This document shows, one piece after another, positions 28,166-51,452 of a stretch of 64,000 nt of DNA. The stretch lies in NCBI GenBank assembly GCA_019057475.1, contig DXJO01000004.1, positions 32,001-96,000 on the forward strand, in the 5' to 3' direction. The notes beneath the pieces are model-generated. The model saw only the letters and a list, made by a program, of their open reading frames with translations. It searched no databases and had not been told where the DNA came from. The stretch's first letter is position 1; each line of letters opens with the position of its first letter. This DNA is from Candidatus Thorarchaeota archaeon. GTDB taxonomy: Archaea; Asgardarchaeota; Thorarchaeia; Thorarchaeales; Thorarchaeaceae. Made by a program: the position numbers and the translations under genes.

Positions 28166-28954
28166 GTGTGCTTAGCGATGGGACGGATACAAGTACGGTA
28201 CACAACAGCTAACGGACGTAAGGAAACTGAGGAGTTTGGCACAAGTGACCACGTCCTTAAACTAAGCTTCAGAAATATCGCTGCAATTGATCTCTCTCCG
28301 TTAGGCCTGTGCAGCGATTTGAAACTGCTTGACCTATCGAACAACGAGCTTGAGTGTCTTGATGTATCTCCATTGAAGCATTGCTTTAACTTGCAGTTTA
28401 TTCGGTGTCAACAGAACCGCCTGGAAGATATAGATCTGTCACCCCTTAGTCAGTGTGTCCGTCTTGAACTGCTGAATTTCTCAGGGAATTTGTTACAATG
28501 CGTTGCATTTCCAGACCTTGGGCATGACTGTAATCTCAAAGAGATATTTCTCTCGAATAACCAACTCGAAGGTATTGACCTCTCACAGTTGAGTCAATGC
28601 TCGCGGCTGAAGTGGCTCAAGATCGCGCATAACCGTCTACCGAATATTGATCTCTCAGCGCTCAGTAACTGTTCCTCTCTGGAGGAGCTTGACCTAAGCG
28701 CGAATAGACTTGAAGAATTGAATGTTGAACCTCTTGGCCTGTGCCCGGCTCTCCGCGAATTGTGGCTTCATGACAACGGGATGCAGAGTCTTGACGTGTC
28801 AGCGCTGTTCGAATGTCCTCAGCTGGCAACACTTCAAACCGAAGCACCAACATCGCAATTTGCACTAACTCTGAGAGCAGATGAGCAGCTAAGTAGCAGG
28901 ACACGCATCCCACCTGCTTTGGAAGACCTTCGAAGCCGAATTCATTGGGTCTAG
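28166..28954 (+). CDS. leucine-rich repeat protein
   Basis: About eight 24-aa repeats of IDLSPLxxCxxLxxLxLxxNxL. Confidence 0.92.
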   Translation: MCLAMGRIQVRYTTANGRKETEEFGTSDHVLKLSFRNIAAIDLSPLGLCSDLKLLDLSNNELECLDVSPLKHCFNLQFIRCQQNRLEDIDLSPLSQCVRLELLNFSGNLLQCVAFPDLGHDCNLKEIFLSNNQLEGIDLSQLSQCSRLKWLKIAHNRLPNIDLSALSNCSSLEELDLSANRLEELNVEPLGLCPALRELWLHDNGMQSLDVSALFECPQLATLQTEAPTSQFALTLRADEQLSSRTRIPPALEDLRSRIHWV

Positions 28955-29139: not shown

Positions 29140-30363
29140 ATGAGACCTCTGAACAACACCTCTCTGCCAGTCTACGTCGCCTATGCCCTTCACTCACTTG
29201 GGTTGGCGATATCATGGCAGTTTGTCACGCATTTCATCAAGTGGGAGCTTGATGTGCCATCAGAGTTCCTTCTTACTGTGGCTCTCGCCCTTCCCGCACT
29301 TGTCACAATGCTTTCTGTTAATGTCTGGGGCGCGTTGTCAGACAGGATCAACAAAAGGCGGCCCTTCATGGTGCTTGGTTTCTTCAGCTATGCGACAACC
29401 TTCATGTTCACATCTTTTGTTTCTAGTTACGCGCAATACCTGATTGTGGTTTCTATTGGAGCTGCCTTCTCGTCGGCAGCATTGCCAATGGGACAAGCGT
29501 ATCTCACGGACAGGACATCAAAAAAGGGGGAAACTCTTGGCTACTTCTTGATGGCCCAGTCCGCAGGCTGGTTCTTTGGAGCCCTATTCAGTGGGCTTAT
29601 TTACACTCCGGAAATGATGTTCATCCTCTACAGGGTAGCCGCTCTACTTAGTGGCGGAGCTGCAATTAGTAGCATCTTCTTTGTCAAGGAGCAGCCTTTG
29701 GAACGCCTGAAAGATGAATCTCATACAGGATTCTTAGCCCTGCTGAAACGCCGCGGCATGATTATTTTGGTTATAGCAGCTGCAGTCAGCGCCCTTGGAA
29801 TGCACTCAATCGCTGGACTCATGGCAATTATGATCACGGATGAGCTTGGAGGCCCGTTCGCATACGTGGGATATGCCAATGCTGCAGCAACCCTGATAGC
29901 GGTCCTGATTACGGGCTACGTTGGAAAAATCGTTGACAAACGCGGCCCAGTACAGGTGCTTGTGGTTGCCTATTTCTCCTACATACTGTTCGCAATTGGT
30001 TTCGCTATGGCAACAAGTCCGGAAATTGCTTTAATTCTGTGGGCACTGCCAATCTATCCATTGTCTTCAACCGCCGCATTTGCCTTGGGAGCGCGGATTT
30101 CCGGAGAGCGTGAGCGTGGTCGCGCGATGTCGCTGGTAAATGGTGCGCAGAATCTCGGCATGGTGCTTGGCCCTCTCATCGGGGGATTCTTTGCCGAACT
30201 GATGAATCGGGTTCAACCGGTTTCGTGGGCCAACGTGGCTTTCAATTTTCTCGCTCTCTTCTTGGCACTAGGCCTAGTGCGTCGATTAGGGTGGAGAACT
30301 GAAAGAATCAGCCAGACTGACCAACACTTTGAAATAACGGAGCAGCCTCCTGCAAGCATATGA
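29140..30363 (+). CDS. MFS transporter
   Basis: GALSDRINKRRP and GKIVDKRG motif A; 12 TM pattern. Confidence 0.93.
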   Translation: MRPLNNTSLPVYVAYALHSLGLAISWQFVTHFIKWELDVPSEFLLTVALALPALVTMLSVNVWGALSDRINKRRPFMVLGFFSYATTFMFTSFVSSYAQYLIVVSIGAAFSSAALPMGQAYLTDRTSKKGETLGYFLMAQSAGWFFGALFSGLIYTPEMMFILYRVAALLSGGAAISSIFFVKEQPLERLKDESHTGFLALLKRRGMIILVIAAAVSALGMHSIAGLMAIMITDELGGPFAYVGYANAAATLIAVLITGYVGKIVDKRGPVQVLVVAYFSYILFAIGFAMATSPEIALILWALPIYPLSSTAAFALGARISGERERGRAMSLVNGAQNLGMVLGPLIGGFFAELMNRVQPVSWANVAFNFLALFLALGLVRRLGWRTERISQTDQHFEITEQPPASI

Positions 30364-31196
30364 CTGGTGATTGCACAATCGGAGCCAAGATTGTTGGTGA
30401 CAGATACCTCCTTTTCAAGAATCGAGACCTTGTCTATGAAGATTACAAAGACCAATGCATCTTTGAGGATGACATCTTCGCGGTGATTGGCATTAAGATT
30501 GGTGCGGGTATTGACATGGGCGCGTCTATTGGTGTCAACCGATGGGGTCTTGCTGCCTGCAACTCAACCGTTCTAATTAATTCTGAAGAAGCGTATGACG
30601 TTCTCATGGAGCGCTTGCTACGAAGAGCCAAGACCCTCGATGAGGCCTATGACATCGTGGTGAAATCCCTCGACAGTGGGGAAAGATATCAGTGGGGGAA
30701 TTTTGTAATTGCGACGCCCGATGAGGTTGGAGCAATTGAAATCGGCGATGGCGTGTATGAAATCGAGCGTGGCTCAGATTCGATTGCTCGTACGAATCAT
30801 CATCTCGTCCTCTCAACAAGGGACGCCCTGCTCAGAGCATCGCCTGAGGAGCGCGAAGCTGGAGGGCCTCTCAGCGCGAGTCAGAACAGAAGGCAGATTG
30901 CAGCAAGGATGCTTGAATCCGCAAGGTCCACCCAAGATATAATCGAGATACTCAGTACACACGCCAAGGGAAAGGGCTATGATTCGATATGTCGGCACAG
31001 AACTGGCGTGCGGGGTGAAGACCCGTGGTTGGGTGAAACCTCCTATAGCTATATCATTGAGGTCGAAACGAAGCCGCTTGACTTCCGCATTCATGTTGCA
31101 CCTGGGAACCCTTGCAGTACTACGTACCACGAGGTGCAACTAGACTTCAAAACTTCCAGTGAAGCAAAAGGACAACTAATTCGCGATTTTCCATGA
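30360..31196 (+). CDS. Ntn-hydrolase (C45/choloylglycine hydrolase-like)
   Basis: N-terminal DCT nucleophile, KNRD, GVNRWGLA, ARTNH. Confidence 0.8.
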   Translation: MTGDCTIGAKIVGDRYLLFKNRDLVYEDYKDQCIFEDDIFAVIGIKIGAGIDMGASIGVNRWGLAACNSTVLINSEEAYDVLMERLLRRAKTLDEAYDIVVKSLDSGERYQWGNFVIATPDEVGAIEIGDGVYEIERGSDSIARTNHHLVLSTRDALLRASPEEREAGGPLSASQNRRQIAARMLESARSTQDIIEILSTHAKGKGYDSICRHRTGVRGEDPWLGETSYSYIIEVETKPLDFRIHVAPGNPCSTTYHEVQLDFKTSSEAKGQLIRDFP

Positions 31197-31220
31197 ACAC
31201 GTGGAACAGCTGGTGATCTG

Positions 31221-32120
31221 ATGGACCTCACACGACTTCAACAAGCACTGCAAGGAGTTGCCATAACGACAGCCACTCCTTTTTCTAAAGACCTCCGCTC
31301 AGTAGATCTAGATGCATTGACTGGAAACATGAAGTATCTATTGAGGGCGGACGGGAAGTTACTTGTTCCCTGTGGCAACACCGGAGAGTTCTACGCACTT
31401 ATGTTCGATGAATGGAAGCAGGTGTTGAGAACTACCCTTGATGTTGTTGCTGACAAGATGATAGTGACTGTGGGCATCGGTCACTCCATTGGCACTGCCC
31501 TCGAAATGATCCGGTACGCTGAGACTGAAGGGGCAGATGGAGTAATGGTGATGTACCCTCGGCATGTATTCAGCTCTGAGGAAGGCGTCCTGAACTACTA
31601 TCGAAGAATCATAGATGCGGCAAAGGAAGTTGGCGTAGTCCTGTACAAGAAGGGTCCGCTCTTGACGGATGAAGTCTTGAGTAAGTTACTAGAGAGCGGC
31701 AAAGTCGCAGGCGTGAAGTATGCTTACGGCCGAATAGTCAACTTCGCCAGGACGGTATACACACTTGGAGAAGATGTGATTTGGTCTTGCGGCGTCGCAG
31801 AGAGGTTCGCTCCATTCTATTGGCTCGCAGGCGCAAGAGGCCTCACGACTGGTCTTGGCAACTTTGCACCAAAGGTTTCACTTGGGATGTTCGATGCTCT
31901 GGTCAGGAGTGATTGGACTGAAGCAATGCGTATTCACAAGATGATAACTCCTCTTGAGGACTTGCGTGAGGGGCGAGGTAGTGCAAATAATGTTCCTGTG
32001 GTAAAGGCTGTGATGGACTCCTTGGGATTAGCTGGAGGAAACTGCCGACCTCCCATTCACAAGCTAACTGAGGCCGAAAGGCAGGCAGCGATTGATGCAG
32101 TTTCGGGATGGGGTCTCTAG
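31221..32120 (+). CDS. DapA/NanA-family class I aldolase/dehydratase
   Basis: ATPF, GNTGEF, VVLY, GVKYA (Schiff-base Lys), RPP. Confidence 0.9.
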   Translation: MDLTRLQQALQGVAITTATPFSKDLRSVDLDALTGNMKYLLRADGKLLVPCGNTGEFYALMFDEWKQVLRTTLDVVADKMIVTVGIGHSIGTALEMIRYAETEGADGVMVMYPRHVFSSEEGVLNYYRRIIDAAKEVGVVLYKKGPLLTDEVLSKLLESGKVAGVKYAYGRIVNFARTVYTLGEDVIWSCGVAERFAPFYWLAGARGLTTGLGNFAPKVSLGMFDALVRSDWTEAMRIHKMITPLEDLREGRGSANNVPVVKAVMDSLGLAGGNCRPPIHKLTEAERQAAIDAVSGWGL

Positions 32121-32129
32121 ACCAAGCAC

Positions 32130-33320
32130 TTACTCCAGAAGTATCTTCTTGCCATTGATGAAGACCTGCAAAACTTCACTGTAGAAGTCGAATGGGTCAC
32201 CAGACCAAATCACTAAATCTGCATCTTTGCCCGGTTCAAGAGAGCCCACTCGGTCTTCAATCGCAAGGATCTCAGCAGGATTCAGAGTGACACACTTCAA
32301 GGCGTCTTCACGGCTCATGCCATGCTTAATCGCATACATTGGCAGGAGGGGGAAATAGTTCATTGGCGTGAGCGAGTCTGTCTGAAGCGCTACCTTCACA
32401 CCAGCCTTGTTGAGAATGACTGCTGTCTTGAAGCCACGCTCTTTTACTTCCGGTTTGGTGACCCAGAGCATGGTAGGCCCAATAACTGCTGGGACTCCCT
32501 TCCTGGCTATGTACTTGGCAATCTTGTGGCCTTCTGTGCAGTGGATGATAACGAGCCTTAGGTTGAACTCTTCTGCGATTCTAATGATGGTAGCTATGTC
32601 ATCAGCCCGATGAGAATGTGCATGAAGTGGTATCTGTCTCTTGAGAACCTTGGCGATGGTTTCTAGACCCAAGTCTCTCTTGGGCGGCTTAGGTATCGCT
32701 TCACCTTTCTCCTTCGCCTCTCTGGCTTTCGCACCGAAGGCTTTCCACTCGTCCAAGTAATTCTGACCATTTGTGAGTGTCTTTCTCAGAAGTGCGGCAA
32801 CACCCATCCGAGTCGAAGGCATTCTCTTGTTGTCTACTCCATGTACTCTTTTTGGGTTCTCTCCAAGTGCGATCTTGAGCGCAGATGGAGACATCACAAT
32901 CATCTCATCAACGACATTGCCGCCCATTGGCTTGATAACAAAAGCCTCACCAGATACCACGTTCCCTGACCCGGGACCGGTATTGATGCAGGTCACGCCT
33001 CCTCTTGTTATCTCCTTGAGTGACGCTTCGAACGGGTTGAAGCCGTCCATACCGCGCATCTCAGGAGTGATTGGAGTTGTCATCTCATTCCCGTCCATTC
33101 CAGCCCACCCAATCGAACCGTCGAACAATCCGTGGTGACAATGCGCGTCAATGAAGCCTGGCAATACATACTGTCCCTTGGCATTAATCTTCTTGGCCTT
33201 GGTGGGTATAGTTATCGATTTGCCAACCTTGACGATTTTGCCCTTGTCAAACAGAACAATGCCATTCTTTATCACGCCCTGTACGGGGCACATTATCGTT
33301 GCATTTGTAATCGCAATCAT
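32130..33320 (-). CDS. amidohydrolase family protein
   Basis: PGFIDAHCH, KIALGENPK, HSHRADDI, HCTEG, GSLEPGKDAD. Confidence 0.92.
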   Translation of the reverse strand: MIAITNATIMCPVQGVIKNGIVLFDKGKIVKVGKSITIPTKAKKINAKGQYVLPGFIDAHCHHGLFDGSIGWAGMDGNEMTTPITPEMRGMDGFNPFEASLKEITRGGVTCINTGPGSGNVVSGEAFVIKPMGGNVVDEMIVMSPSALKIALGENPKRVHGVDNKRMPSTRMGVAALLRKTLTNGQNYLDEWKAFGAKAREAKEKGEAIPKPPKRDLGLETIAKVLKRQIPLHAHSHRADDIATIIRIAEEFNLRLVIIHCTEGHKIAKYIARKGVPAVIGPTMLWVTKPEVKERGFKTAVILNKAGVKVALQTDSLTPMNYFPLLPMYAIKHGMSREDALKCVTLNPAEILAIEDRVGSLEPGKDADLVIWSGDPFDFYSEVLQVFINGKKILLE

Positions 33321-34545: not shown

Positions 34546-35583
34546 GTGGTACGACCCGGTCCAGGCTGTGCTGTTTGGGAGATCACACTGAAGTGCAATC
34601 TGAATTGCATGCATTGCGGCTCCGCAGCTGGAAAAGCACGAAGCGATGAGCTTACCACAGATGAAGCACTGCAACTATGTGATGACCTGAAAGGCATCGG
34701 TTGTCAGGGCGTCGCTATGATGGGTGGCGAGCCACTACTTAGAAAAGATTGGCCATCTATCGCAGAGCGAGTACGCGAAGTAGGCATGGACCTGTCGATT
34801 ATCACTAACGGGTACAAAATCACTGAGAGCAAATTTCAGCGAATCTTCGATGTCAACCCCGAGTTGGTTACAGTAAGTATTGATGGCGGGCACGCCGCTA
34901 TTCATGATACGATACGCGGAGTTCCGGGCTCCTTCAAACAGGTAGTAGCAACTCTTCGCCGACTCGTGAAATCTGGCTTGCCAACTGGTGTCATCACCAC
35001 TGTCCACAAGATGAACCTAGGCGAGCTTCCCACTATCCGAAAATTCTTGCTGGGCACGGGCGTAGCGTGGCAGATACAGATGGCCACGCCCTACGGGCGT
35101 CTTACATATGATCATGTTCTCTCAAAGGAAGAATACTATTCACTGGCTCTATTCATTGCTGCCACCCGGAAGAGGTACTCCAAGAAGGAGCTCATGATTG
35201 CAGGTGCACATGACATGGGCTACTTCTCACGGGTTCTCCCCCCCTTGCAAGTGTATCCGTGGCAAGGCTGTCAAGCTGGCATCTCAACACTTGGGATTGA
35301 GAGCAATGGAAACATCCTTGGGTGTCTTGCATTGCCTCCGGAGTACGTGGAGGGCAACATTCGCGAACGGCCTCTGAAAGAGATCTGGAACGATGACGCT
35401 TTTTCCTCGTACACTCGCAGAGTTCGGCGGACTGACTTGGGCAGCGAGTGCGCCAGCTGTACATACAGTAAGATATGCAAGGGTGGCTGTTCTGCCGTTT
35501 CTCATTCGATGGCAGGTGGACTTCATCGAGATCCATATTGCCTTCGTCTTATTGAAGAGGGACTCAAGAAAAGCAACAGTTGA
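34546..35583 (+). CDS. radical SAM/SPASM peptide maturase, PlpX (splicease)-like
   Basis: VWEITLKCNLNCMHCGS, GGEP, AWQIQMATPYGR, WQGCQAGISTLGIESNGNILGC, CASC...CKGGC...DPYC. Confidence 0.9.
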   Translation: MVRPGPGCAVWEITLKCNLNCMHCGSAAGKARSDELTTDEALQLCDDLKGIGCQGVAMMGGEPLLRKDWPSIAERVREVGMDLSIITNGYKITESKFQRIFDVNPELVTVSIDGGHAAIHDTIRGVPGSFKQVVATLRRLVKSGLPTGVITTVHKMNLGELPTIRKFLLGTGVAWQIQMATPYGRLTYDHVLSKEEYYSLALFIAATRKRYSKKELMIAGAHDMGYFSRVLPPLQVYPWQGCQAGISTLGIESNGNILGCLALPPEYVEGNIRERPLKEIWNDDAFSSYTRRVRRTDLGSECASCTYSKICKGGCSAVSHSMAGGLHRDPYCLRLIEEGLKKSNS

Positions 35584-35627: not shown

Positions 35628-35993
35628 ATGTCATTGATGGATATGATTCCAGTTGGGATTGAACTACTCCGACTTAGTGGGCGAGACGGCGTGTACGCTA
35701 TTCTATCACGGGTGTTCAAAGCTCAACCGACACCTCTGGCATATAGAAGAAGAATCAGGCCGCTCGGCGCTAGCGTAGGATTGTCAGAGGCTGAGGTTGA
35801 CGAGGTTATTAGCGGGAGTTCTAATGTTACGGTCCTTCCATCTTGGTTGAAGTGGGGTCTTGTTGCTTTCATAGTCGTTGTGTTGATTCTTAGTGCCATC
35901 GCGGTGACCGGGTCGTACGTGCCCTGGTATACGAATCCGACCTACGTTCCAGGTACCGACTATGCAAGCATCAGGCCTAAGGATTTCTTGTAG
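35628..35993 (+). CDS. single-TM candidate precursor 1 (tail TYVPGTDYASIRPKDFL)
   Basis: Paralogue of the next three ORFs: LGAxxGLxxxE motif, TM helix, conserved tail. Confidence 0.85.
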   Translation: MSLMDMIPVGIELLRLSGRDGVYAILSRVFKAQPTPLAYRRRIRPLGASVGLSEAEVDEVISGSSNVTVLPSWLKWGLVAFIVVVLILSAIAVTGSYVPWYTNPTYVPGTDYASIRPKDFL

Positions 35994-36452
35994 GAATGGC
36001 CTATTGAGTTCGTGCATATACCTAAAGATCAAGTGGCATTACGCTATTCAATGAATTATCTCATCCCTTTGCGTTGCGTAAGTTTCTTATTGGAGTTAGT
36101 CTAATGTTCATACATGCTTCTAGATAAACCTCCCACCGTCGGACTTGACATCCTCCGTACCCGGGGCGGAGAGCGTCTTTACCGATTGATTCTTCGAATT
36201 GCGGGGATTCCAACAGTCAGGGCAATGCCCTCGAAGGAATTAGTGCGTCTTGGAGCCAAGGTCGGGCTTGAAGCGTCGGAGGTTGAACAGGTTGCAGAGA
36301 GCAGACCTGATGTAAATGTGCTTCCCGATTGGTTGAAGGCAATTCTAGCCCTCATTGTGATTGTTGGCTCGTACTATCTGGGGCGAAGAATGACCTATCT
36401 CCCCGGGACGTTGTATGGAGCCATAGGTCCACGGGACTTCTTGTAGGAATGG
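35985..36452 (+). repeat. direct repeat TTCTTGTAGGAATGG spanning the stops of precursors 1 and 2
   Basis: Exact 15-mer at 35985-35999 and 36438-36452. Confidence 0.8.
36114..36446 (+). CDS. single-TM candidate precursor 2 (tail TYLPGTLYGAIGPRDFL)
   Basis: Same architecture; LYG motif. Confidence 0.85.
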   Translation: MLLDKPPTVGLDILRTRGGERLYRLILRIAGIPTVRAMPSKELVRLGAKVGLEASEVEQVAESRPDVNVLPDWLKAILALIVIVGSYYLGRRMTYLPGTLYGAIGPRDFL

Positions 36453-36539
36453 TCCAGAGGGTTCATCTGAATAACTTGGAAACTGGCTTGCATTACGCGT
36501 ATCAATAGCTTTTATGCTTCGGAGCCCTACCGTCTTCTC

Positions 36540-36923
36540 ATGACTTGGAGGGAATCCATTCTCTATGAACTGAACGCAACTCGCTTTCGACGGCTAGGCG
36601 GGCTTGGAGGGCTCAAAGATTGGGTGTGCGGTTTCTTAGCAACTTCAGTTCTTGATACAGAGAAAGCCGAGCAGTTAGGCGCTCAAGCTGGTCTGACTTC
36701 CGACGAGGTTGGAGCTGTTATGGACGCTCGAATGAGCAGAAAAGAGAGCATCCTGTTCAAGCTGACGGTAGTAGTTTTTACGCTCATAATTGTGGGAGCA
36801 GTTATTATGGCAGACCCATTAGGTGTTTTTGGCCAATACCCCGCCACCAACACCACGTACGTGCCGGGTACGCGCTATGGCAGCATCAGCCCGAAGGACT
36901 TCCAGTGGGGATTCGCACATTAA
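36540..36923 (+). CDS. single-TM candidate precursor 3 (tail TYVPGTRYGSISPKDFQWGFAH)
   Basis: Same architecture; RYG motif. Confidence 0.85.
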   Translation: MTWRESILYELNATRFRRLGGLGGLKDWVCGFLATSVLDTEKAEQLGAQAGLTSDEVGAVMDARMSRKESILFKLTVVVFTLIIVGAVIMADPLGVFGQYPATNTTYVPGTRYGSISPKDFQWGFAH

Positions 36924-37000
36924 CACTTGTCGATTATTCAGGGCCAGTCGCTCTACGCCAACCGATAATCTTAACGGCTTTGACCCCATACTATACAACT

Positions 37001-37369
37001 ATGAATTGGATGGAACTCTGTCTGTATCAACTGGATGTGGTTTCTATCCGAGGGAGCCGCCGCTTCCTTGGGCCTATGGAATGGCTTCGCAGTTTCTTGA
37101 CAAAACCAGTCCTTGGGTCAGAGAAGATCGAGCTGCTCGGTGCTCAAGCAGGTCTCGAACCCAATGAGGCTCGAGACGCAGTAAGCATGCCCGCAAGCAA
37201 GGGTGAGAGCATAGTGTTCAAGCTGGTTGTGGGGATTGTGCTTTTCTCAATCTTGATTTCGATTGTGATTATGAGCCCAATAGGCGCCTACATCAATCAG
37301 GAGCTCTTCAACACAACTTACCTGCCAGGGACACTCTATGGAAGCATCAGTCCGAAAGACTTCAGGTAA
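37001..37369 (+). CDS. single-TM candidate precursor 4 (tail TYLPGTLYGSISPKDFR)
   Basis: Start moved to ATG 37001 because MNWMELCLYQL aligns with MTWRESILYEL of copy 3; LYG motif. Confidence 0.85.
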   Translation: MNWMELCLYQLDVVSIRGSRRFLGPMEWLRSFLTKPVLGSEKIELLGAQAGLEPNEARDAVSMPASKGESIVFKLVVGIVLFSILISIVIMSPIGAYINQELFNTTYLPGTLYGSISPKDFR

Positions 37370-37374
37370 GCACG

Positions 37375-38688
37375 ATGCGAATCCACGTGGGCTGCGGCCC
37401 GGTCTACAAGAAGGGCTACGTCAACATTGACGTCTTTGATCCTACTGTTGCAGATCGTATCATGTCTGCATATCATCTGGAATTTCCCGATGACTCAGCA
37501 AGTCTTGTGGAGTGTATGCACACTCTCGAACACCTGGGTGCAGCGAAGAGCATCTATGCATTGGCTGAATTCTTTCGCGTATTGAAACCTGGGGGTGTCT
37601 TACTTCTGGAAATCCCAGACATAGAAGCAACCTTTGCAAACTTTCTCAAGCACGGGGAAAAACAAAGGAAGCTCCTAATGAACTGGATCTACGGCTTAGA
37701 TTCGCCAGGGATGGGCCATCGCTACTGCTTCCCCCGGGAACTGCTCAGTCGCATGTTGAAAGAGTCTGGGTTCAAAGATATCCTGTTGAAGCGGCTCGCG
37801 ACCAAATCTATCCAACCATCATTGCGGGTCAAGTGCAGGAAACCTGAATCGTATATTGCCCATCAGATTATTTCACGTGTACGACGTTCTCTGGTAGACA
37901 ATGGCCTAGTTGATCTTGATGACCAAGTCAGTGCACTTGACCGCGAAACTCTCATCCAATCTCTTGCTTCACTGACACATCAGCTGTGTGCCAAATGGGA
38001 TGAACTGGCGCTAAGGCAGATGACCATAGAATCAGCGGTGCAGAATCCGCGAATGGGGTTGGCTTTCATCGAGCAACTTGAGAGCCAGGTTTCTGAGTCG
38101 GCTTCTCGGGTGAAGAGGTATGGGCGGATTCTCGAAACACTGGGGTCTCTTGACTTCCCTGCAGTTTTGTTGCATCTACTTATGCAGGTTCCTCCACAGG
38201 TAGGAACTCAGAACCAGACGTACCTGACTGTCCGAAATATGGGGGTTGCCACTGTCAAGAAGCTTCTTGCAGGAAAGGAAGAACAGGCAGTCTCGAAGGA
38301 GCTGCGACGAACACGTGCGGCGTTGTCTGGCGATAAAATTCTGAGCCACTTCTCTGAAGAAGGAGTGAAGCGCCTTGCAGAGCAGAGTTTCGCTCACGGT
38401 GCAAAAGCTTTTGCTAATCATGAACTAACTGAGGCCGTTCGATTGTTCGAAGAGGCGTTCAGTCTTAATCGTGATGATCTTCTTATTACATGGAACCTAG
38501 CGCGTCTGAAGGCGATCGAAGGAAAAGGAGATACGTCAAAGAAGTACTATGAAATGACTTCCTTGCTTGCCCAACGCTACAAGCAACCCTTCCGTCGAAG
38601 GATGCTCGAGCGGCTTCGCTCTGAAATCAGTCTTGCATCCGAGGGCCAGATGGATGGCCTAGCAGCACCAGTCTACCAGGCCTTCTAG
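37375..38688 (+). CDS. class I SAM-dependent methyltransferase with C-terminal TPR
   Basis: IHVGCG...VNID, HTLEHL, RVLKPGG; C-terminal EAVRLFEEAFSLN...WNLARL. Confidence 0.88.
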   Translation: MRIHVGCGPVYKKGYVNIDVFDPTVADRIMSAYHLEFPDDSASLVECMHTLEHLGAAKSIYALAEFFRVLKPGGVLLLEIPDIEATFANFLKHGEKQRKLLMNWIYGLDSPGMGHRYCFPRELLSRMLKESGFKDILLKRLATKSIQPSLRVKCRKPESYIAHQIISRVRRSLVDNGLVDLDDQVSALDRETLIQSLASLTHQLCAKWDELALRQMTIESAVQNPRMGLAFIEQLESQVSESASRVKRYGRILETLGSLDFPAVLLHLLMQVPPQVGTQNQTYLTVRNMGVATVKKLLAGKEEQAVSKELRRTRAALSGDKILSHFSEEGVKRLAEQSFAHGAKAFANHELTEAVRLFEEAFSLNRDDLLITWNLARLKAIEGKGDTSKKYYEMTSLLAQRYKQPFRRRMLERLRSEISLASEGQMDGLAAPVYQAF

Positions 38689-39946: not shown

Positions 39947-41800
39947 TTGAGCAAAGAACGGAAGAAGAAAGAAGACATCTCTTTGGAAGATCTGATAGCT
40001 CTACCTGTCCAGTTCATGGGCAACCCTGGTAGAACTAGTCGAAGAATATGCTTTGCATCAAATAAGACTGGCCGAATGGAATTACATTTACTTGATCTTG
40101 AAACGCAAGAGTTCTCTCAACTATCAAATGGTGAGTATCCAATATCTCCAGTGGGTTGGCATAAATGGGCTCCAGATGACACATATCTCCTATTTCCTAA
40201 GGACCCAATTCAGGGAAATGAGAAGAATGACATCTACAAAATATCAGTCCCAGATGGAAGAGTAACGCAAATTACCAATACTCCTGAATCCAGCGATGAC
40301 TTGGGAGAGGTTAGCCATGATGGGAAATGGATTGTCTTCCGCTCCGATCGTGTTGAGGGTATTGATCAACTGTTCAGAATGCGCCCTGATGGAACGGAAG
40401 TCACGCAGCTCACAGAGCATACCCGCCCGATTTCATTCTGGTCAGATGTTAGTATATCCCCAGATGATGAGTGGATTGCTTATACTGCAAATGAATCAGA
40501 GAATCTCCAGAATATCGATGTATGGGTTGTGAAAATGGATGGTTCTGATAGGAAGAAGCTCTTTGGAGTCCAAGATGGATCAAAGGAGTTGGTTCGGGCT
40601 TGGTCACGCGATGGTACTATGTTATTAGTATCATCTGACTATGCGGGGACTGACCAAGCTGGAGTTTATTTCCTGAACTCAGGTAATGTGAAATGGTTTG
40701 GAGAAGCAAGTGCTCCTGAGTCACCAGTGAAATTCACTGCTGATGGTAAACAAATCATAGTTGGACGTGACATTGATGCTGAGCAGAAACTTCTCCTCTA
40801 TGATATAAAAACTGGAGAGGAAACCACACTCGATATCCCCTCTGGATTTGCAGGTGCAGTATACACTACATTTGACGGAAATCATCTACTTGTGGGTCAT
40901 CAAGACTCGACCCATCGAATGCGTTTCATACTATACGATCTCATCAAGCATTCCTTTGAAGAGGTCATCCCTGCAGAGTATGGGAGATTTTCTCCTGAAG
41001 ATTTCCTCCCAGATGAATACATCAGCTATCCTTCTGGTGACACGACGGTTCATGCGATTCTATACAGGCCAAAGAATCTCAAGCGTGGTGTGAAGCTACC
41101 TGCTATCGTAGTACCCCATGGAGGTCCTACTGGACACTATATCCGCGTCTTCCTTGATGATGCTCAGGTACTTGCAAATGAAGGATATGTCTTATTGTAC
41201 CCGAATGTAAGAGGATCCACAGGATATGGTGTAGAATTCAGAGATGCATGTCTGAATGACTGGGGGGGCAAGGATCTTGATGACGTTGAGGCTGGGGTTG
41301 AGTATCTACGTAGTCTAGATTATGTGAATCCTGACCGAATAGGAATACATGGTGGTAGCTATGGAGGTTATTTGACATTCATGGCTGTCACAAAAAAGCC
41401 AGACCTCTGGAAAGCAGCCTCAGCTTGGATGGGAATCACTTCATTAAAGCATCTCCACGAGAAGTGCAAGGAAACATTCCCGGCTCTGCCATATTACCTT
41501 GAGGAGCAGATGGGCAAACCTGAGGACGAAGGAGTTCTTGAACTATGGGAAGACAGAAGCGCAATCAACTTCGTGAAGAATATGTCCGCCAAGCTTCAAA
41601 TGATTCATGCTGAGAACGACCCGCGATGTCCCATCGAGCAGTCTGAGATGTTCAGAGACCGATTAGTCGAATTGGGACGAAAAGAGGGAGAAGACTTCGA
41701 GTATGTCCATCTAACAGAAGAGGGACACGGGTCATTCGATAAAGACCAACGCGTACGGATGATGCGTCACGTCTTTGACTTCTTTAATCGAAACCTCTGA
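39947..41800 (+). CDS. S9 family peptidase (acylaminoacyl peptidase-like) with beta-propeller
   Basis: HGGP, NVRGSTGYG, GGSYGG, NDPRC, EGH. Confidence 0.95.
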   Translation: MSKERKKKEDISLEDLIALPVQFMGNPGRTSRRICFASNKTGRMELHLLDLETQEFSQLSNGEYPISPVGWHKWAPDDTYLLFPKDPIQGNEKNDIYKISVPDGRVTQITNTPESSDDLGEVSHDGKWIVFRSDRVEGIDQLFRMRPDGTEVTQLTEHTRPISFWSDVSISPDDEWIAYTANESENLQNIDVWVVKMDGSDRKKLFGVQDGSKELVRAWSRDGTMLLVSSDYAGTDQAGVYFLNSGNVKWFGEASAPESPVKFTADGKQIIVGRDIDAEQKLLLYDIKTGEETTLDIPSGFAGAVYTTFDGNHLLVGHQDSTHRMRFILYDLIKHSFEEVIPAEYGRFSPEDFLPDEYISYPSGDTTVHAILYRPKNLKRGVKLPAIVVPHGGPTGHYIRVFLDDAQVLANEGYVLLYPNVRGSTGYGVEFRDACLNDWGGKDLDDVEAGVEYLRSLDYVNPDRIGIHGGSYGGYLTFMAVTKKPDLWKAASAWMGITSLKHLHEKCKETFPALPYYLEEQMGKPEDEGVLELWEDRSAINFVKNMSAKLQMIHAENDPRCPIEQSEMFRDRLVELGRKEGEDFEYVHLTEEGHGSFDKDQRVRMMRHVFDFFNRNL

Positions 41801-45157: not shown

Positions 45158-46705
45158 TCAGCGTCGCCTCCCTCGTAAGCGTGGATTGACAACTTTGTCC
45201 GCTGCGTGACTCACGAACACGAAACCTAACGAGGTCAGTAGGATCAGCAATCCCGGTGGAAGAATCCACCACCATGCCATATTGAGAAGTGCCGCGTTCT
45301 TGTTTGCCCAATGAAGCATGATACCCCAGCTGGGTGGCCCGTGAATATCCACGAAACCAAGGAACGCGATACCTGCCTCACCAAGAATAGCACTAACAAC
45401 ACCAAGAATCATGTTTGCCAAGATAAGTGGCAAAGTGTTTGGAAGAATGTGTTTGATGAGGATGTATCTATCCGAAGCACCTAATGCATGGGCCGCCTCT
45501 GTAAGAGGTCTCTCCCTGAGAGATAGCGCCTCACTTCGTACCATTCTCGCTGTTCCTGTCCAACCAAGAATTGCAATGACAAAAATGATGTTGTGAAGAC
45601 CCTGTCCAAACATAATCAGAAATACTAACATCAGTGGGAGTGTTGGAAGTGAAAGGAATACATCAGTTATTCGCATTAGAATAGTATCAACAGATCCGCC
45701 ATAATAGCCAGATATCAAACCCACTGTAGTACCTAGACCCACGGCGACAATACTAGCTGTGAATCCAACTATAAGTGAAATTTGAGTTCCATAAACTAGG
45801 CGACTCAAGATATCCTGACCGATGTGATTAGTTCCCAGCGGAAATTCTGCTGAAGGTGGTAGAAGCAGATTCTCTCCAATTCCAGCTGTTAATTCGCCCC
45901 AGTTTCGTATCAACCCTGCCCATTCAAGCACTGGTGCAATTAATGCTAGACCAACGATTGCGCCAATAATGCCCAGACCGACAAGCCCCATCCGTTCATG
46001 AACGAACTCGCTCCAGAATGATTCAATGCTCCTGCGATAATTCCAAATCGATTCGATTATTTTGGGAAGGATCATGTATGCTGGAATTAGGATGAATGTT
46101 GCGATAAGTGAGATTCCACCCAGTGTATTGTTTAGTGGCACCGAAAGCACTGCTGGCAAAATAGTAGTTCCAGTTGCTGCTTCGGAGAGGAATCCTTCTA
46201 ACACAATCCAGATTCCTACACTGCCAACTGCGATTCCACGATAAAGATCAATCTGTCGATTCGACCAATGGGCGAGTAGTTTTGGATTCCATAGAAAGAG
46301 CACGAATGCGAAAATGAATCCTATTCCTATACCAAATGCAAAGAAGAAGAGTATTGTAAGTCCAACTAGTAATAATGGTTGTAGAATTTTTACCAGACGA
46401 TAATTATAGAACTGCTTGTAATAAAGTGCGAGGAACATTGTTCCTCCGAACAATGCCCAACCGCTGATTCGATATGATGTTGTTATGAACAAACTGTAAT
46501 CTTCAGACAACCCTGTTACTTCGAAGGACAACCATCCAACTAAGATGTTTGTCACTGAATCTACAATGAATATGACTAAGAGAGTAAGTAAGATGAACGA
46601 TCCTAGTGAAGCCAATTTTACATGCCAGGGTTTCTTCTTACTTGCTGTTTCGAATATTTCATTGTCTGAATCCGTTGAGATATCTTGGTGTGTCATTTTC
46701 TGCAT
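45158..46705 (-). CDS. peptide ABC transporter permease (OppC-like) with large N-terminal TM extension
   Basis: PLGTNHIGQDILSR, EAAHALGA, PSWG. Confidence 0.93.
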   Translation of the reverse strand: MQKMTHQDISTDSDNEIFETASKKKPWHVKLASLGSFILLTLLVIFIVDSVTNILVGWLSFEVTGLSEDYSLFITTSYRISGWALFGGTMFLALYYKQFYNYRLVKILQPLLLVGLTILFFFAFGIGIGFIFAFVLFLWNPKLLAHWSNRQIDLYRGIAVGSVGIWIVLEGFLSEAATGTTILPAVLSVPLNNTLGGISLIATFILIPAYMILPKIIESIWNYRRSIESFWSEFVHERMGLVGLGIIGAIVGLALIAPVLEWAGLIRNWGELTAGIGENLLLPPSAEFPLGTNHIGQDILSRLVYGTQISLIVGFTASIVAVGLGTTVGLISGYYGGSVDTILMRITDVFLSLPTLPLMLVFLIMFGQGLHNIIFVIAILGWTGTARMVRSEALSLRERPLTEAAHALGASDRYILIKHILPNTLPLILANMILGVVSAILGEAGIAFLGFVDIHGPPSWGIMLHWANKNAALLNMAWWWILPPGLLILLTSLGFVFVSHAADKVVNPRLRGRRR

Positions 46706-46711
46706 TCCTCC

Positions 46712-47731
46712 TTAATATCTAATTCTTGGATCCAGGTACAAGTACAACACATCCGCTAGAAAATTCGCAAAAACTGTGATACTTGCTAAGAATAGAAATA
46801 TCCCCTGTAAAACCGGATAATCTACTGATAATACAGAATGATACGTCAACAATCCTAATCCTGACCAACTAAAAACGAATTCAGTAATCATAGCGCCACT
46901 GATAAGGTACGGTAGGTTGACTGCAACAACGCTGACCATCGGTAACATTGCATTTCTCATAGCATGTCCAAAGAGTATTGTGCGTTCTTTGAGCCCTTTT
47001 GCTCTAGCTGCAAGAATATAATCTTGTGTGAACACATCTAGTACCGAATCTCTCATTATCAGGTAGAAACCTCCAATGAACGATAATGTTAGAACTATCC
47101 ATGGCCCTGTCATATGCCACAAGTAATCACGCCAATAATCAAGGAAATTCACATGCACATAGCCTCTTGTGATTGTTCCTGCAAGAGGAATAATTCCTAA
47201 TTGAAATCCGAAAAACATCAGCATTAGTAGACCAATCCAAAATACGGGCATTGCGTATGCGACAAGAAAAGTTACAGTGGATCCAGTGTCAATTAAGGTG
47301 TCGCGTCGAGCTGCTGCAATAACACCGACTACTATTCCGATGATTATTGCTGCGGCCATTGAAGCTCCCATCAGAATGAATGTGTTTGCAAATCTGAAAT
47401 CAAAAATCGTTTTCCAAACTGGCTCTCCGAAATGTGAAAAGGAATAGCCCATGTCTCCTTGAAAGAGATTAACCAGATAGATGAAATATTGTTCAATGAG
47501 ACTCTTGTCTAACCCAAATCGTTCAACGATTGCTTGTCTAAGTTCTGGAGGGATGCCTTCACCTAGAAGTGCCTGACGAGGATCTCCTGGCATAACTCTG
47601 AAAATGATAAAATTCAGTGTTATGATCATAAACCACACTATGATTGTTTGTACGAAACGCTGAGCAATATACCGCCGGGTTCCAACACTAGTTCTTGCTG
47701 ACACAGCACCACTCTCATTCAATATATGCAA
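46712..47731 (-). CDS. peptide ABC transporter permease (OppB-like)
   Basis: MPGDP, DYILAARAKGL, LDPRIR; true start may be slightly downstream. Confidence 0.93.
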   Translation of the reverse strand: MHILNESGAVSARTSVGTRRYIAQRFVQTIIVWFMIITLNFIIFRVMPGDPRQALLGEGIPPELRQAIVERFGLDKSLIEQYFIYLVNLFQGDMGYSFSHFGEPVWKTIFDFRFANTFILMGASMAAAIIIGIVVGVIAAARRDTLIDTGSTVTFLVAYAMPVFWIGLLMLMFFGFQLGIIPLAGTITRGYVHVNFLDYWRDYLWHMTGPWIVLTLSFIGGFYLIMRDSVLDVFTQDYILAARAKGLKERTILFGHAMRNAMLPMVSVVAVNLPYLISGAMITEFVFSWSGLGLLTYHSVLSVDYPVLQGIFLFLASITVFANFLADVLYLYLDPRIRY

Positions 47732-47817
47732 TTATGTACTACTTAAAAGACCGCGGAATTACGTGGGCAAAAAGAAAGGAGTAGGGACCTAAGCTAGGCC
47801 CCTTAAACCAGTTTGAA

Positions 47818-49548
47818 TTATTTCTTCTTCATGAAGAGGTAGGTCACAATTACACCTACAATCAGCGCACCAGCACCAATTCCAATCACGAGAACCCAGT
47901 CAACGCCTGTTGGAGGTTCAGTAACTAAACCAGAGTCGTACATAAAGACCATAGCTCGTGGGTTGAATGATGTAAATGGTCCACCGGGTGGTGTAGTGAA
48001 GTTGACCCACTCAGCTCTCATTGCGTGAGTGTCATCAGACAAGAAGAGTGGTATGAATGGCTTGTGCTCAAGGCAGTCAAGTTGAACTTGCCTTGCTGCA
48101 GCAGCTATTGTCGCGGGTGTAGCGCCCACGAAGTCATCCAAATGTGTGTCTACTGCAGTATCACTGAGACCATAACAGTTGTCACCCCAGTCAACAATGT
48201 TGTCTGAGTGCATTCTCCACCAGACATGGTCTGGTACAGCACTGTAACCGTGACTCATCTCATAAGCGATGAATGCACGTGGTTCTGCATAAATGCCTTC
48301 ATACATTGGACCATCATCCATAACTTTGACGTTACAGTCGATACCTATTTTGGCTAGTTGAAGCTTGATACCTGTTCCAGTTGCTACGCTGATGTCATCC
48401 CATGAGAGGACCCAGAGGTCAAAATCTAGATCATCAAAGAAGCCATCCTCGTCTCCGTCTGTGTATGTATCATTCAAAAGGTCGATTGCTGCATCAATGT
48501 CCTGAGTTGGGAATGCGCCATCATTATCAAAGTATGCTGGGAAGAACTCGGCTGGAATGCAACTGTTAGTTGGTGTTCCAAATCCAAGTCTGCCAATGTT
48601 GATAAGTTCTTGACGATCAATTCCTAGTGCAATTGCATCTCTAACATCAGGATCATCGAATGGTGCAACTGTTGTATTAAATCCTAGAACATAATCCCAT
48701 TGGGATACAACACCTGTAACTAGTTGTAGTTCGGGTGCATTTAGGATTGAGTTTACATAAGCACCAAAGACTTCGTAGCGTTCTGTGTCAGCTTCACCAC
48801 TTCTCATTGCGAGAATACGAGCATCCTGACCGAGTACCACATCAATTCGAAGGCTTTCGATATTCGGTAGTTGACCCACATATGGATTATCAGGACCCCA
48901 CCAGTCGTCGTTTCTTTCCATCTGAATAAATTCACTGGGGGTTCGTGAAACGAACTTGAATGGACCTGAACCAATGTGAGCAGTTACGTTTGTAGCATCA
49001 TCCCACACAGCTGCATCGGCAGCAACACCTTCTCGAATGTGTTTTGGCAGAAGATGCATTGAACCTAAGTTATCAACAGCAAATGTAAATGGTTCATCAA
49101 ATACAACTGTAACAACCTGACCGCTAACGGTAATTGTTGTTGTATGCTGTAGTAGTGACCAATAGTTTGCATCTGCCGGTGCGGCCTTGTGATGGTCAAA
49201 AGTGAATTTGACATCTGCAGGTGTTAACGCAGTACCATCATGCCAAGTAGCACCCTCTCTTATGGTGAAGGTGACACTCATTCCATCTGCGGACACTGTC
49301 CACGCCTCGGCTAACCAAGGTATCATTTCTAGGTCGTCATCGTATGAGATAAGTGTATCATAAATCAGCATGTCGTACTAGGTTGAGCGTGCGCTACGGG
49401 CAAATATTGGGTTTTGTTCACCAATATCTGAAGGATATGCCATGACGAATTCCATGACATCATCCTGAGCCGCAACGGGTGCGCCCATCACTGGAAAGAA
49501 CAAGAGAATAGCTAGAATGATACAGCTTGCTCTCTGAGTGTTTTTCAT
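47818..49548 (-). CDS. peptide ABC solute-binding protein with in-frame TAG at 49378-49380
   Basis: Signal peptide MKNTQRASCIILAILLFFPVMGAPVAA in frame upstream of TAG; FTIREGATWHDG, GSGPF; C-terminal TM anchor. Confidence 0.88.
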
Positions 49549-49678
49549 ACAATCTTTCCTCCTATAACAACTAGAAGTAGAGTACTCTAGTGAACTTAAT
49601 CATTTGCATCGTATGGTTTAAAGCTTTTGAAAATAGTGATATCGCATGAAGAAAAAGCTGAATGGAAAGATTCGCTAA

Positions 49679-50473
49679 TCAACAGAAATCATGTTTCAAT
49701 TTCTTCTGATACAAATCATCCTTTTCACAGATACGTGATAGCGCGATACCGTTCTGAAGTGCCTTATCTAGAGAACCTTCACCTATGTTCTCTAGAAATA
49801 GGAACCTTTCCTTTCCTGATTCTATGTTTTGGAAAATCGCCATTATTGTTTGAATATATACGCGTTCCTCAATCTCAAAACTGTCAACTCGATATTCTAG
49901 TGGGCAATTTGTCACAAGTGATGCAGCTACTGAAAAACTGTGAATTGATTTTCGCTTCAGAGCTAGATCATTCTCTCTGTGCCGAGATTTTGGTGATCTT
50001 GGAATGAAAAGTGGAAATGCCGCACCTGATCCCAATTGAATCCCTCTAAGTTCCTCATCCATTCCAAGGAGTGTTTTCTTAGATTCTTGGATTTTGTTCA
50101 CAAATGCATCAATGAAATTTCGAAGATTATCATCATCTGAGTCTAATGCATTAGTTGAGATAATCGATTTGTCAATGCTCTGAATTCGTTTTTCAGTATG
50201 CATCGGTCTCCACAATAGAAACCAATCGTCTGAAATAATGGCAAGAGGTGCAAGTGTTTCATCTACTAGTGAGCGAAATGTTTCCTTCTGGTTTGTCTTT
50301 ATTCTTGATGCACCAAATCGCACGAACCTGAAAGGTCTCCAAATTGGTTGAGATACTGTTACAGATTCCAATTCTTGTTTACTAAGGATTCCTTTACGTT
50401 TGGCCCTCTTTCGAAAGAAGGATTCAATTTCGCCATCATCGAATTCTTCTATTTCAAAAACTTTCATCTTCAC
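49679..50473 (-). CDS. hypothetical protein
   Basis: 264-aa ORF in an AT-rich block; GAGGA RBS. Confidence 0.7.
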   Translation of the reverse strand: MKMKVFEIEEFDDGEIESFFRKRAKRKGILSKQELESVTVSQPIWRPFRFVRFGASRIKTNQKETFRSLVDETLAPLAIISDDWFLLWRPMHTEKRIQSIDKSIISTNALDSDDDNLRNFIDAFVNKIQESKKTLLGMDEELRGIQLGSGAAFPLFIPRSPKSRHRENDLALKRKSIHSFSVAASLVTNCPLEYRVDSFEIEERVYIQTIMAIFQNIESGKERFLFLENIGEGSLDKALQNGIALSRICEKDDLYQKKLKHDFC

Positions 50474-50578
50474 TCCTCTAGAAACGTCGAATTAAGCACA
50501 AACTAGAACCAAATAAGAAGTTCGACTGATTCTGCATCAGAGGGAGGATAGTTCACAAGGAACTTCTTCATACAATTT

Positions 50579-50866
50579 ATGACTTCCATGATTGACAAAC
50601 TTGAGAAGCACATAGAGGAGAATCTTGAGAATGCTTTGAACGATTTGAAAGAGTTCGTTCGTATTCCTTCTATTGCAACTAAGAATCAAGGCATAGTGGA
50701 GGCTGCTGAATTTCTAAAAAGCCATCTTAGTAGTGCGGGAGTGAAAGTGAAAATTCACAATACATCAGGTTCACCTGTTGTTACAGGCCATCTTGATGTT
50801 GGCGCAAAACGAGCTCCTGAGTTTATTTAAAAGAACGCCGATTTTCTGAAGGCTGATGGAGGGATA
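50579..50866 (+). pseudogene. M20 peptidase remnant (internal deletion plus stop)
   Basis: N-terminus aligns with 51453..52793 up to DVGAKR, then jumps to PEFI*KNADFLKADGGI. Confidence 0.85.
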
Positions 50867-50974
50867 TCGGCGGACTATGTCTGTGCTTTCATGAATAGAG
50901 GCGTTGCACACGACCGTCCTGCGAAGGAACAAAAGCGCGGACCAGGATGGGCATCTCTAAGAGAAAAAGGGTGG

Positions 50975-51216
50975 ACTGTACTGCCTGTTTTGCACATAGA
51001 CGAAGCCTCGCTTGTCTTTGGCGGACGGAAGGAGGATGCTGATCCGCGACTTGGACTGAAATACTTTGGGCCATTCCACACGGACGAGAGAAACCAACGC
51101 CACAGATGCGTATCGGAATCATAGCAATGGGCAGTACACATGCCTTAGCAAGAGCGTTTCTGGAGATGCTAGGGATTGAGCAGAAGTCACATAGTAGTAC
51201 GACGAATTCTCTTTGA
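50975..51216 (+). pseudogene. prokaryotic Argonaute-like remnant (L2/MID-proximal segment)
   Basis: HIDEASLVFGGRKEDADPRLGLKYFGPF, then after a frameshift (~51088) QMRIGII...ALARAFLEML. Confidence 0.6.
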
Positions 51217-51452
51217 TGAATTCTATTCGACGTATCTCTTTGATAGAGTCCGGGTTAGAGTTTCTTTGTTGAAGATGGGTCCGTCGAGAGCAATCATCAT
51301 GTTGGCGTCCTTATGGTGGGAAGATGTCCTTAATGTATATGGTTCGGGTATTCGAAGATAAGCAGTTCGTTTCGACGTTCCGCACATATCGGTCCTCCTA
51401 GATGGGAGAGTATTTGACTAAGCAAGGTTCCCCAAGACACTGGTCGATGCAT

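Follow-up and report, generated by a model that had tools for sequence, protein, structure and literature searches.

A candidate splicease-like radical SAM cassette with small membrane-helix proteins as its probable substrates in a Thorarchaeota genome

The tyramine splicease that was described first, PlpX, modifies Nif11-type precursors at an XYG site (PMC11002830), and XYG is the target of the described spliceases in general (PMC11414181, PMC10533398). In the binary spliceases RhaX/RhaA, RcsX and RasX, no RRE is present and a helix of the precursor is predicted to bind the enzyme (PMC11414181, PMC11626197); the leader helix replaces the Y protein, and that of RhaA is activating (PMC11414181). 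Archaeal spliceotide clusters are attributed to the survey of Scott et al. 2022 (Chem 8:2659), as cited in PMC11626197, and the literature we searched holds no characterised archaeal splicease. Bufferins, a different group of RiPPs, are modified before Sec export and set a precedent for this order of events (PMC12452194).

The window analysed here is a stretch of 64,000 nucleotides of a Candidatus Thorarchaeota contig, an assignment with which the names of its homologs agree. It contains a gene for a radical SAM/SPASM enzyme that is followed, after 44 bases, by four co-oriented genes for small proteins and, after a further 5 bases, by the gene of a methyltransferase-TPR protein (Table 1). We compared this cassette with the known splicing systems and with its relatives in other genomes, and we propose that the small proteins are precursors carrying a leader, a hydrophobic helix and a tyrosine-containing core.

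Table 1. Features of the cassette, in positions of the window
Feature	Positions	Strand	Details
Radical SAM/SPASM enzyme	34546..35583	+	345 aa, Pfam Radical_SAM + SPASM, no RRE
Candidate precursor 1	35628..35993	+	121 aa, core site Asp-Tyr-Ala
Leader motif LGAxxGLxxxE, copy 1	35763..35795	+	helix-turn-helix, predicted to dock on enzyme
Hydrophobic helix, copy 1	35856..35912	+	aa 77-95, hydropathy
16-residue core, copy 1	35940..35987	+	invariant Tyr codon 35961
Candidate precursor 2	36114..36446	+	110 aa, core site Leu-Tyr-Gly
Leader motif, copy 2	36249..36281	+	sequence comparison
Hydrophobic helix, copy 2	36312..36368	+	about aa 67-85, weakest of four, hydropathy
16-residue core, copy 2	36393..36440	+	invariant Tyr codon 36414
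Candidate precursor 3	36540..36923	+	127 aa, core site Arg-Tyr-Gly
Leader motif, copy 3	36675..36707	+	sequence comparison + structure model
Hydrophobic helix, copy 3	36750..36806	+	aa 71-89, hydropathy; helix 68-91 in model
16-residue core, copy 3	36855..36902	+	invariant Tyr codon 36876
Candidate precursor 4	37001..37369	+	122 aa from ATG 37001, core site Leu-Tyr-Gly
Leader motif, copy 4	37136..37168	+	sequence comparison
Hydrophobic helix, copy 4	37214..37270	+	aa 72-90, hydropathy
16-residue core, copy 4	37316..37363	+	invariant Tyr codon 37337
Class I SAM-dependent methyltransferase + helical/TPR domain	37375..38688	+	437 aa, Pfam, TPR matches, fold

The cysteine motifs of the radical SAM enzyme are intact (Cys 17/21/24 and Cys 242, 260, 302, 305, 311, 315 and 332) and invariant in its clade. 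All of its NCBIfam scores lie well below the curated cut-offs: 228 of 725 bits for TIGR04103, which we take to be the family of PlpX, 212 of 592 for TIGR03913 and 154 of 425 for TIGR04133. Among annotated bacterial proteins, members of TIGR04103 and TIGR03913 are closest to it (33-35% identity), and MftC and PqqE come after them. In a 42-row tree with 7-9 outgroups, no darobactin, dynobactin or cyclophane maturases among them, the archaeal-type enzymes form a clade of their own (support 99/99), which groups with the splicease families (83/87); after removal of long branches, the joint splicease branch receives 100/99 against MftC, PqqE and TIGR04053/04347, and its inner order stays unresolved.

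Type I spliceotide systems (PlpX/PcpX with PlpY and a Nif11-type PlpA; TIGR04103) have the same best NCBIfam match as the window enzyme. They also resemble the cassette in having small precursors next to the enzyme, each with a single invariant Tyr towards the C-terminus; in the window, three of the four copies have XYG at this site. The cassette differs in the low score (228/725 bits, 35% identity), an unrelated leader, a hydrophobic helix between leader and core, a variable residue in place of the Gly after the Tyr, a methyltransferase-TPR partner and the lack of a Y protein. The first-pass annotation had seen no separate PlpY/RRE gene, and none is found in the cassette; this gene and a Nif11-type leader are both absent by ORF inspection, Pfam and NCBIfam.

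With the binary spliceases and the GDL-motif trios of TIGR03913 and DUF1843, the cassette shares the lack of an RRE, a precursor helix predicted to lie on the enzyme, tandem paralogous small precursors beside the enzyme gene, and a Tyr followed by a small residue. Unlike these systems, the window enzyme falls in a separate clade and its precursors have no homology to theirs. The Tyr of DUF1843 precursors is close to the N-terminus; that of the window family follows a membrane helix and is close to the C-terminus. No DUF1843 precursor with Tyr-X10-GDL is matched by Pfam in the window, and the HMM of the window family gives DUF1843 proteins no score. Besides Tyr-Gly, Tyr-Ala and Tyr-Met occur in the DUF1843 precursors encoded next to TIGR03913-type enzymes (L089:3159-3872, L091:2037-2752). 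The Aureibacter locus among these has a methyltransferase gene directly after the enzyme, with no BLAST match to the window methyltransferase.

Two further systems bring membranes into the comparison. The TIGR04133/TIGR04134 radical SAM and lipoprotein system of Bacteroidota combines a related enzyme (154 bits) with a membrane-anchored, exported Tyr-Gly partner; its enzyme sits on a long branch of unresolved position, its motif comes right after the N-terminal lipoprotein signal, and it has no LGxxxGL leader. Bufferins and the TIGR04222 membrane proteins, which are MNIO RiPPs (PMC12452194), have export signals or membrane helices and are modified in the cytoplasm before export, but they involve another enzyme class and Cys chemistry, with no homology to the window proteins. 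The cassette works like a binary splicease system, but we do not class it as a member, since the enzyme scores below the family cut-offs, the XYG site is retained in part only and the reaction is predicted from kinship.

The small proteins were first noted as four genes with a common tail, and alignment bears this out: 10 of 16 tail positions are invariant, compared with 10 of the 91 gap-free columns in the remainder of the proteins (Fisher p=2e-5; four copies). Codons differ between copies at about half of the identical tail residues, which places the conservation at the protein level and rules out a DNA repeat or gene conversion as its source. Within the genus, dN/dS is 0.12 for the tail and 0.38 for the remainder, in pairs that were all taken against the window sequence and are not independent. 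The proposed division into two pairs is likewise recovered, with E values of 1e-13 for copies 1 and 2, 1e-25 for copies 3 and 4, and 1e-5 to 1e-7 across pairs. The motif LGA[SKQ][VA]GLxxxE occurs in all four copies, as originally reported, and nowhere else in the genome, which holds no further copies of the small genes. We place the start of copy 4 at the ATG used by its orthologs; the GTG at 36905 chosen by the ORF caller would overlap copy 3. Copy 3 ends with five extra C-terminal residues (36903-36923), while its relatives stop one residue after Asp-Phe, and a recent stop-codon loss is the likely origin of this extension. A scan for sigma-70 promoters, whose consensus does not suit archaea, gave hits at chance level.

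The description of the small proteins as an unrecognised family holds across Pfam, NCBIfam, PDB folds and the ESM Atlas. Neither Pfam nor NCBIfam gives anything above noise for any copy, and fold searches with the precursor model return nothing significant (homeodomain rows at E>2). One ESM Atlas feature match, SurA_N (0.88, low recognition), was treated as a lead only and dropped. Our literature search found no description of the family; the clade may be listed by bioinformatics in the survey of Scott et al. 2022. No known family of unrelated function matches the small proteins, and the tail is conserved in other genomes, namely those of Asgard archaea, Thermoplasmata and some anaerobic bacteria.

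The leader motif is the first of the two conserved parts of the family. In a set of 233 representatives at 70% identity, its Gly residues are conserved in 91% and 95%, its Leu in 91% and its Glu/Asp in 97%. In the AlphaFold model of copy 3, the motif lies in a helix-turn-helix, followed by the long hydrophobic helix and an unstructured tail. The question of where the motif docks was addressed with a homologous helix-less enzyme/precursor pair, distinct from the window pair, whose predicted complex reaches an ipSAE of 0.79 against 0.00 for the best control; 58 of 80 solved complexes attain this mark, as do 2 of 110 mismatched pairs; at least 30% of contacts recur between runs, and the partner pLDDT is at least 61. 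The confident contacts join leader residues 6-31 to enzyme helix 198-209 (195-206 in the window enzyme); the predicted docking site is a surface helix. Only the leader is placed with confidence in this complex, which holds no evidence either way on the core Tyr reaching the active site. The prediction supports binding of the leader to the radical SAM enzyme and would parallel the activating leader helix of RhaA (PMC11414181). No similarity was detected between the leader and DUF1843 or Nif11 precursors, and a profile comparison with a single Nostoc Y-like protein, a weak test with one sequence, gave no match. A 62-residue ORF elsewhere (L084:7694-7882), adjoining two enzyme paralogs, has the leader motif without the Tyr core; it may serve as an activator in its own right, as PlpY does, or have arisen by decay of a precursor.

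Each of the four copies contains one hydrophobic segment, in agreement with the transmembrane helix assigned at first pass, with 19-residue Kyte-Doolittle means of 2.7, 1.9, 2.7 and 2.9 in copies 1 to 4. The helix, part of the original description of the family, does not define it, since about a fifth of members have none. Lys/Arg residues precede the helix in 132 members and follow it in 14, a bias that also holds within the lysine-rich Loki-type group; among multi-helix members, 31 of 34 have three helices, and the bias at the last helix is 33:0. The 132:14 ratio, together with the leader motif at the predicted enzyme interface, supports a cytoplasmic N-terminal leader. The odd helix numbers, combined with the lipoboxes and disulfide-bonded Kunitz domains of bacterial members, argue that the core ends outside. 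Both placements follow the original proposal. The iron-sulfur, SAM-dependent enzyme has no export signal and is presumably cytoplasmic, so that modification would have to precede insertion; as a counterpoint to the model, such an enzyme would need access to a core behind a membrane helix before that helix is inserted. The NTT sequon reported in copies 3 and 4 is present, but as evidence it carries no weight, since sequons are at chance level in the family (28 observed, 34 expected from shuffles; present in 25 of 161 transmembrane members). The surface-sorting signal families of Pfam and NCBIfam do not match the precursors. With sequons at 28 against 34 in shuffles and no sorting-signal match, we set aside a reading of the tail as that of an archaeal N-glycoprotein or surface-sorted protein.

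The tail is the second conserved part. In the same set of 233 representatives, the upstream Tyr is conserved in 92%, Gly in 91%, the second Tyr in about 100%, and Asp and Phe in 94% each; among 215 aligned representatives, the second Tyr is missing in just one. The residue that follows is Gly in 54% of the family, Ser in 28% and Ala in 13%, so that an invariant Tyr stands in an incompletely kept XYG motif, and the Tyr-Ala site of copy 1 is retained in every relative. Some members without a helix carry a 15-residue core in 2-5 tandem copies behind a single leader, beside a homologous enzyme; such tandem cores are typical of RiPP precursors and are the best argument for the tail as substrate. 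In multi-helix members, the upstream Tyr-Pro and the C-terminal Tyr are each found in 34 of 34, despite the helix hairpin of 56-85 residues between them. Two conserved Tyr could be a sign of a crosslink.

The upstream Tyr follows the methyltransferase. All precursors of a locus have it at 49 of 49 methyltransferase-bearing loci, compared with 4 of 10 methyltransferase-less ones; the latter belong mostly to one Thermoplasmatales group and are not independent lineages, for which reason we treat the correlation as a lead and not as a statistical result. The pattern suggests that the radical SAM enzyme needs the second Tyr alone and that the methyltransferase uses the upstream one. The methyltransferase domain is intact, with the motif I Gly residues invariant in 27 homologs, and fold searches return generic class I matches alone, with no clue to the substrate. 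A Ser/Thr two residues after the Tyr was also considered as methyl acceptor, as among one-helix members its occurrence follows that of the methyltransferase (44 of 49 loci); three-helix members have Val at this position and keep the enzyme, so that this acceptor cannot be universal.

The cassette occurs in about a quarter of 400 Asgard genomes, with the small family in 81, the enzyme (counted at E<=1e-90) in 105 and both in 77. Four genomes have the small family with the enzyme unmatched; one of them is a 52%-complete bin, one has a split enzyme, and one is cut at a contig end. At L064:8063-9131 (genome G061), the enzyme gene lies in two pieces beside intact precursors and methyltransferase, as the result of a frameshift or assembly error. 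Most of the enzyme-only Asgard genomes examined have divergent three-helix precursors. The enzyme is found at 20 of 20 small-gene loci examined and the methyltransferase at 19 of 20; conversely, within 4 kb of GTDB enzyme loci, a family member is present at 71 of 79 and the methyltransferase at 56 of 79. Enzyme loci span Thor-, Promethe(Loki)-, Hod- and Hermodarchaeota, Thermoplasmatota, Elusimicrobiota, Syntrophus, Geobacteraceae and Nitrospiraceae, with 1-5 paralogous precursors per locus.

The family is modular, with a leader, a variable middle and a Tyr core. The middle is a single helix in most of the family, absent in about 43 Thermoplasmata-type members, made of three helices in others, a lipobox (lipoprotein signal) in Elusimicrobiota, and a signal with a Kunitz domain in Geobacteraceae and Syntrophus. 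The Kunitz domain stands between signal and core in three bacterial members (L131:3490-3963, L118:3559-3987, L123:3610-4014), which fits a protease-inhibitor role. The cultured Promethearchaeum syntrophicum MK-D1, one of the genomes that count above as enzyme-only, encodes the enzyme as QEE16170.1, the methyltransferase as QEE16169.1 and precursors as DSAG12_01996 and DSAG12_01997, and its locus (L182:3295-7143) shows three three-helix precursors with Tyr-Gly, Tyr-Asp or Tyr-Asn in the core. Some Thermoplasmata loci (L081, L097-L106, L120, L139) combine two or three enzyme paralogs with helix-less precursors, and L081 has a B12-dependent radical SAM gene as well; such multi-paralog loci may install more than one modification.

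Around the cassette, the window holds genes for an MFS transporter, a C45/AAT-family Ntn hydrolase, a DHDPS-like protein and an amidohydrolase upstream (29140-33320); these are syntenic in genome G027 and not in G010, and are thus probably not part of the cassette. By eye, 28166-28954 encodes a 262-residue leucine-rich-repeat protein, and 39947-41800 a 617-residue S9 peptidase with a beta-propeller-like N-terminal part and a Gly-Gly-Ser-Tyr-Gly-Gly motif. Positions 46001-52000 have a G+C of 0.41-0.45, compared with about 0.49 elsewhere, and are a possible insertion.

The four proteins show the traits of RiPP precursors, with a leader predicted to bind the maturase, a hypervariable linker, a conserved or repeated core and linkage to the maturase gene, and they are very probably leader-bearing substrates of the neighbouring enzyme. 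We propose the following model. The LGAxxGLxxxE helix-turn-helix, conserved throughout the family, would act as the leader and bind a surface helix of the enzyme, in place of a separate PlpY/RRE. In the cytoplasm, the enzyme would modify the second Tyr of the tail, the residue to which invariance points. Judging by kinship, it would most likely excise tyramine (C8H9NO) and leave an alpha-keto-beta-amide, the reaction of the spliceases; we give this reading roughly an even chance. The methyltransferase-TPR protein may add a second change, and its co-occurrence with the upstream Tyr makes this residue the best candidate. The hydrophobic helix would then serve as a signal anchor, as charge bias and helix parity suggest, leaving the leader inside and the modified tail outside near the membrane, with insertion after modification. 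The most likely use, as a speculation, would be a surface ketoamide that traps proteases. A two-component, splicease-like system with a membrane-displayed product is, taken as a whole, slightly favoured. Its most specific form is a tentative possibility: a widespread archaeal route in which the leader keeps one- or three-helix proteins on the cytoplasmic radical SAM enzyme, one Tyr is spliced without a following Gly, the second is methylated, and a ketoamide warhead is displayed on the Asgard surface.

The main rival keeps precursors, leader and topology unchanged and replaces splicing by other Tyr chemistry, such as a crosslink between the two Tyr or between Tyr and a neighbour, or backbone cleavage at Tyr; a Tyr-Tyr crosslink is its chief form. 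Crosslinking of aromatic residues is common among SPASM enzymes, the upstream Tyr is kept in 92% of the family and both Tyr are invariant across the hairpin of multi-helix members, and the residue after the second Tyr is often other than Gly. Against this, Tyr-Ala and Tyr-Met also occur in the DUF1843 precursors beside TIGR03913 enzymes, and the closest characterised families splice. Moreover, six of the ten methyltransferase-less loci lack the upstream Tyr yet keep the enzyme and the second Tyr, so that a Tyr-Tyr link is not the universal reaction, and we consider this rival rather unlikely.

Two other explanations change the role of the helix or of the whole protein. The hydrophobic segment may be a cleaved export signal that releases a modified peptide of 25-35 residues, as would suit the bacterial members, where a lipobox Cys terminates it or a Kunitz domain comes after it as after a signal peptide, and Sec-exported RiPPs are known in the bufferins (PMC12452194). 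However, the stretch behind the helix shows no conserved peptidase site in the archaeal alignment, members with three helices are integral to the membrane and the lipoprotein form stays anchored, all of which makes release improbable. It is less probable still, and indeed very unlikely, that the small proteins are membrane tethers or activators of an enzyme acting elsewhere, for example on a lipid or cofactor. A leader-only ORF does exist, PlpY-type helices are activators (PMC11414181), and the leader alone is confidently placed in the predicted complex; on the other hand, some helix-less members carry tandem Tyr cores, loci hold up to five paralogs, and the strongest selection falls on the tail, which would lie across the membrane from the enzyme and make no sense in a tether.

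The splicease-like model with a displayed product lends itself to tests, since soluble helix-less homologs of 52-65 residues suit co-expression in E. coli and a cultured archaeon, P. syntrophicum MK-D1, has the cassette. Known splicease substrates are soluble XYG peptides; if the model is true, integral membrane proteins and sites without Gly would come within reach of backbone editing, which would be useful for protein engineering. With its enzyme in 105 of 400 genomes, the cassette would be among the commonest RiPP-like cassettes in Asgard archaea.
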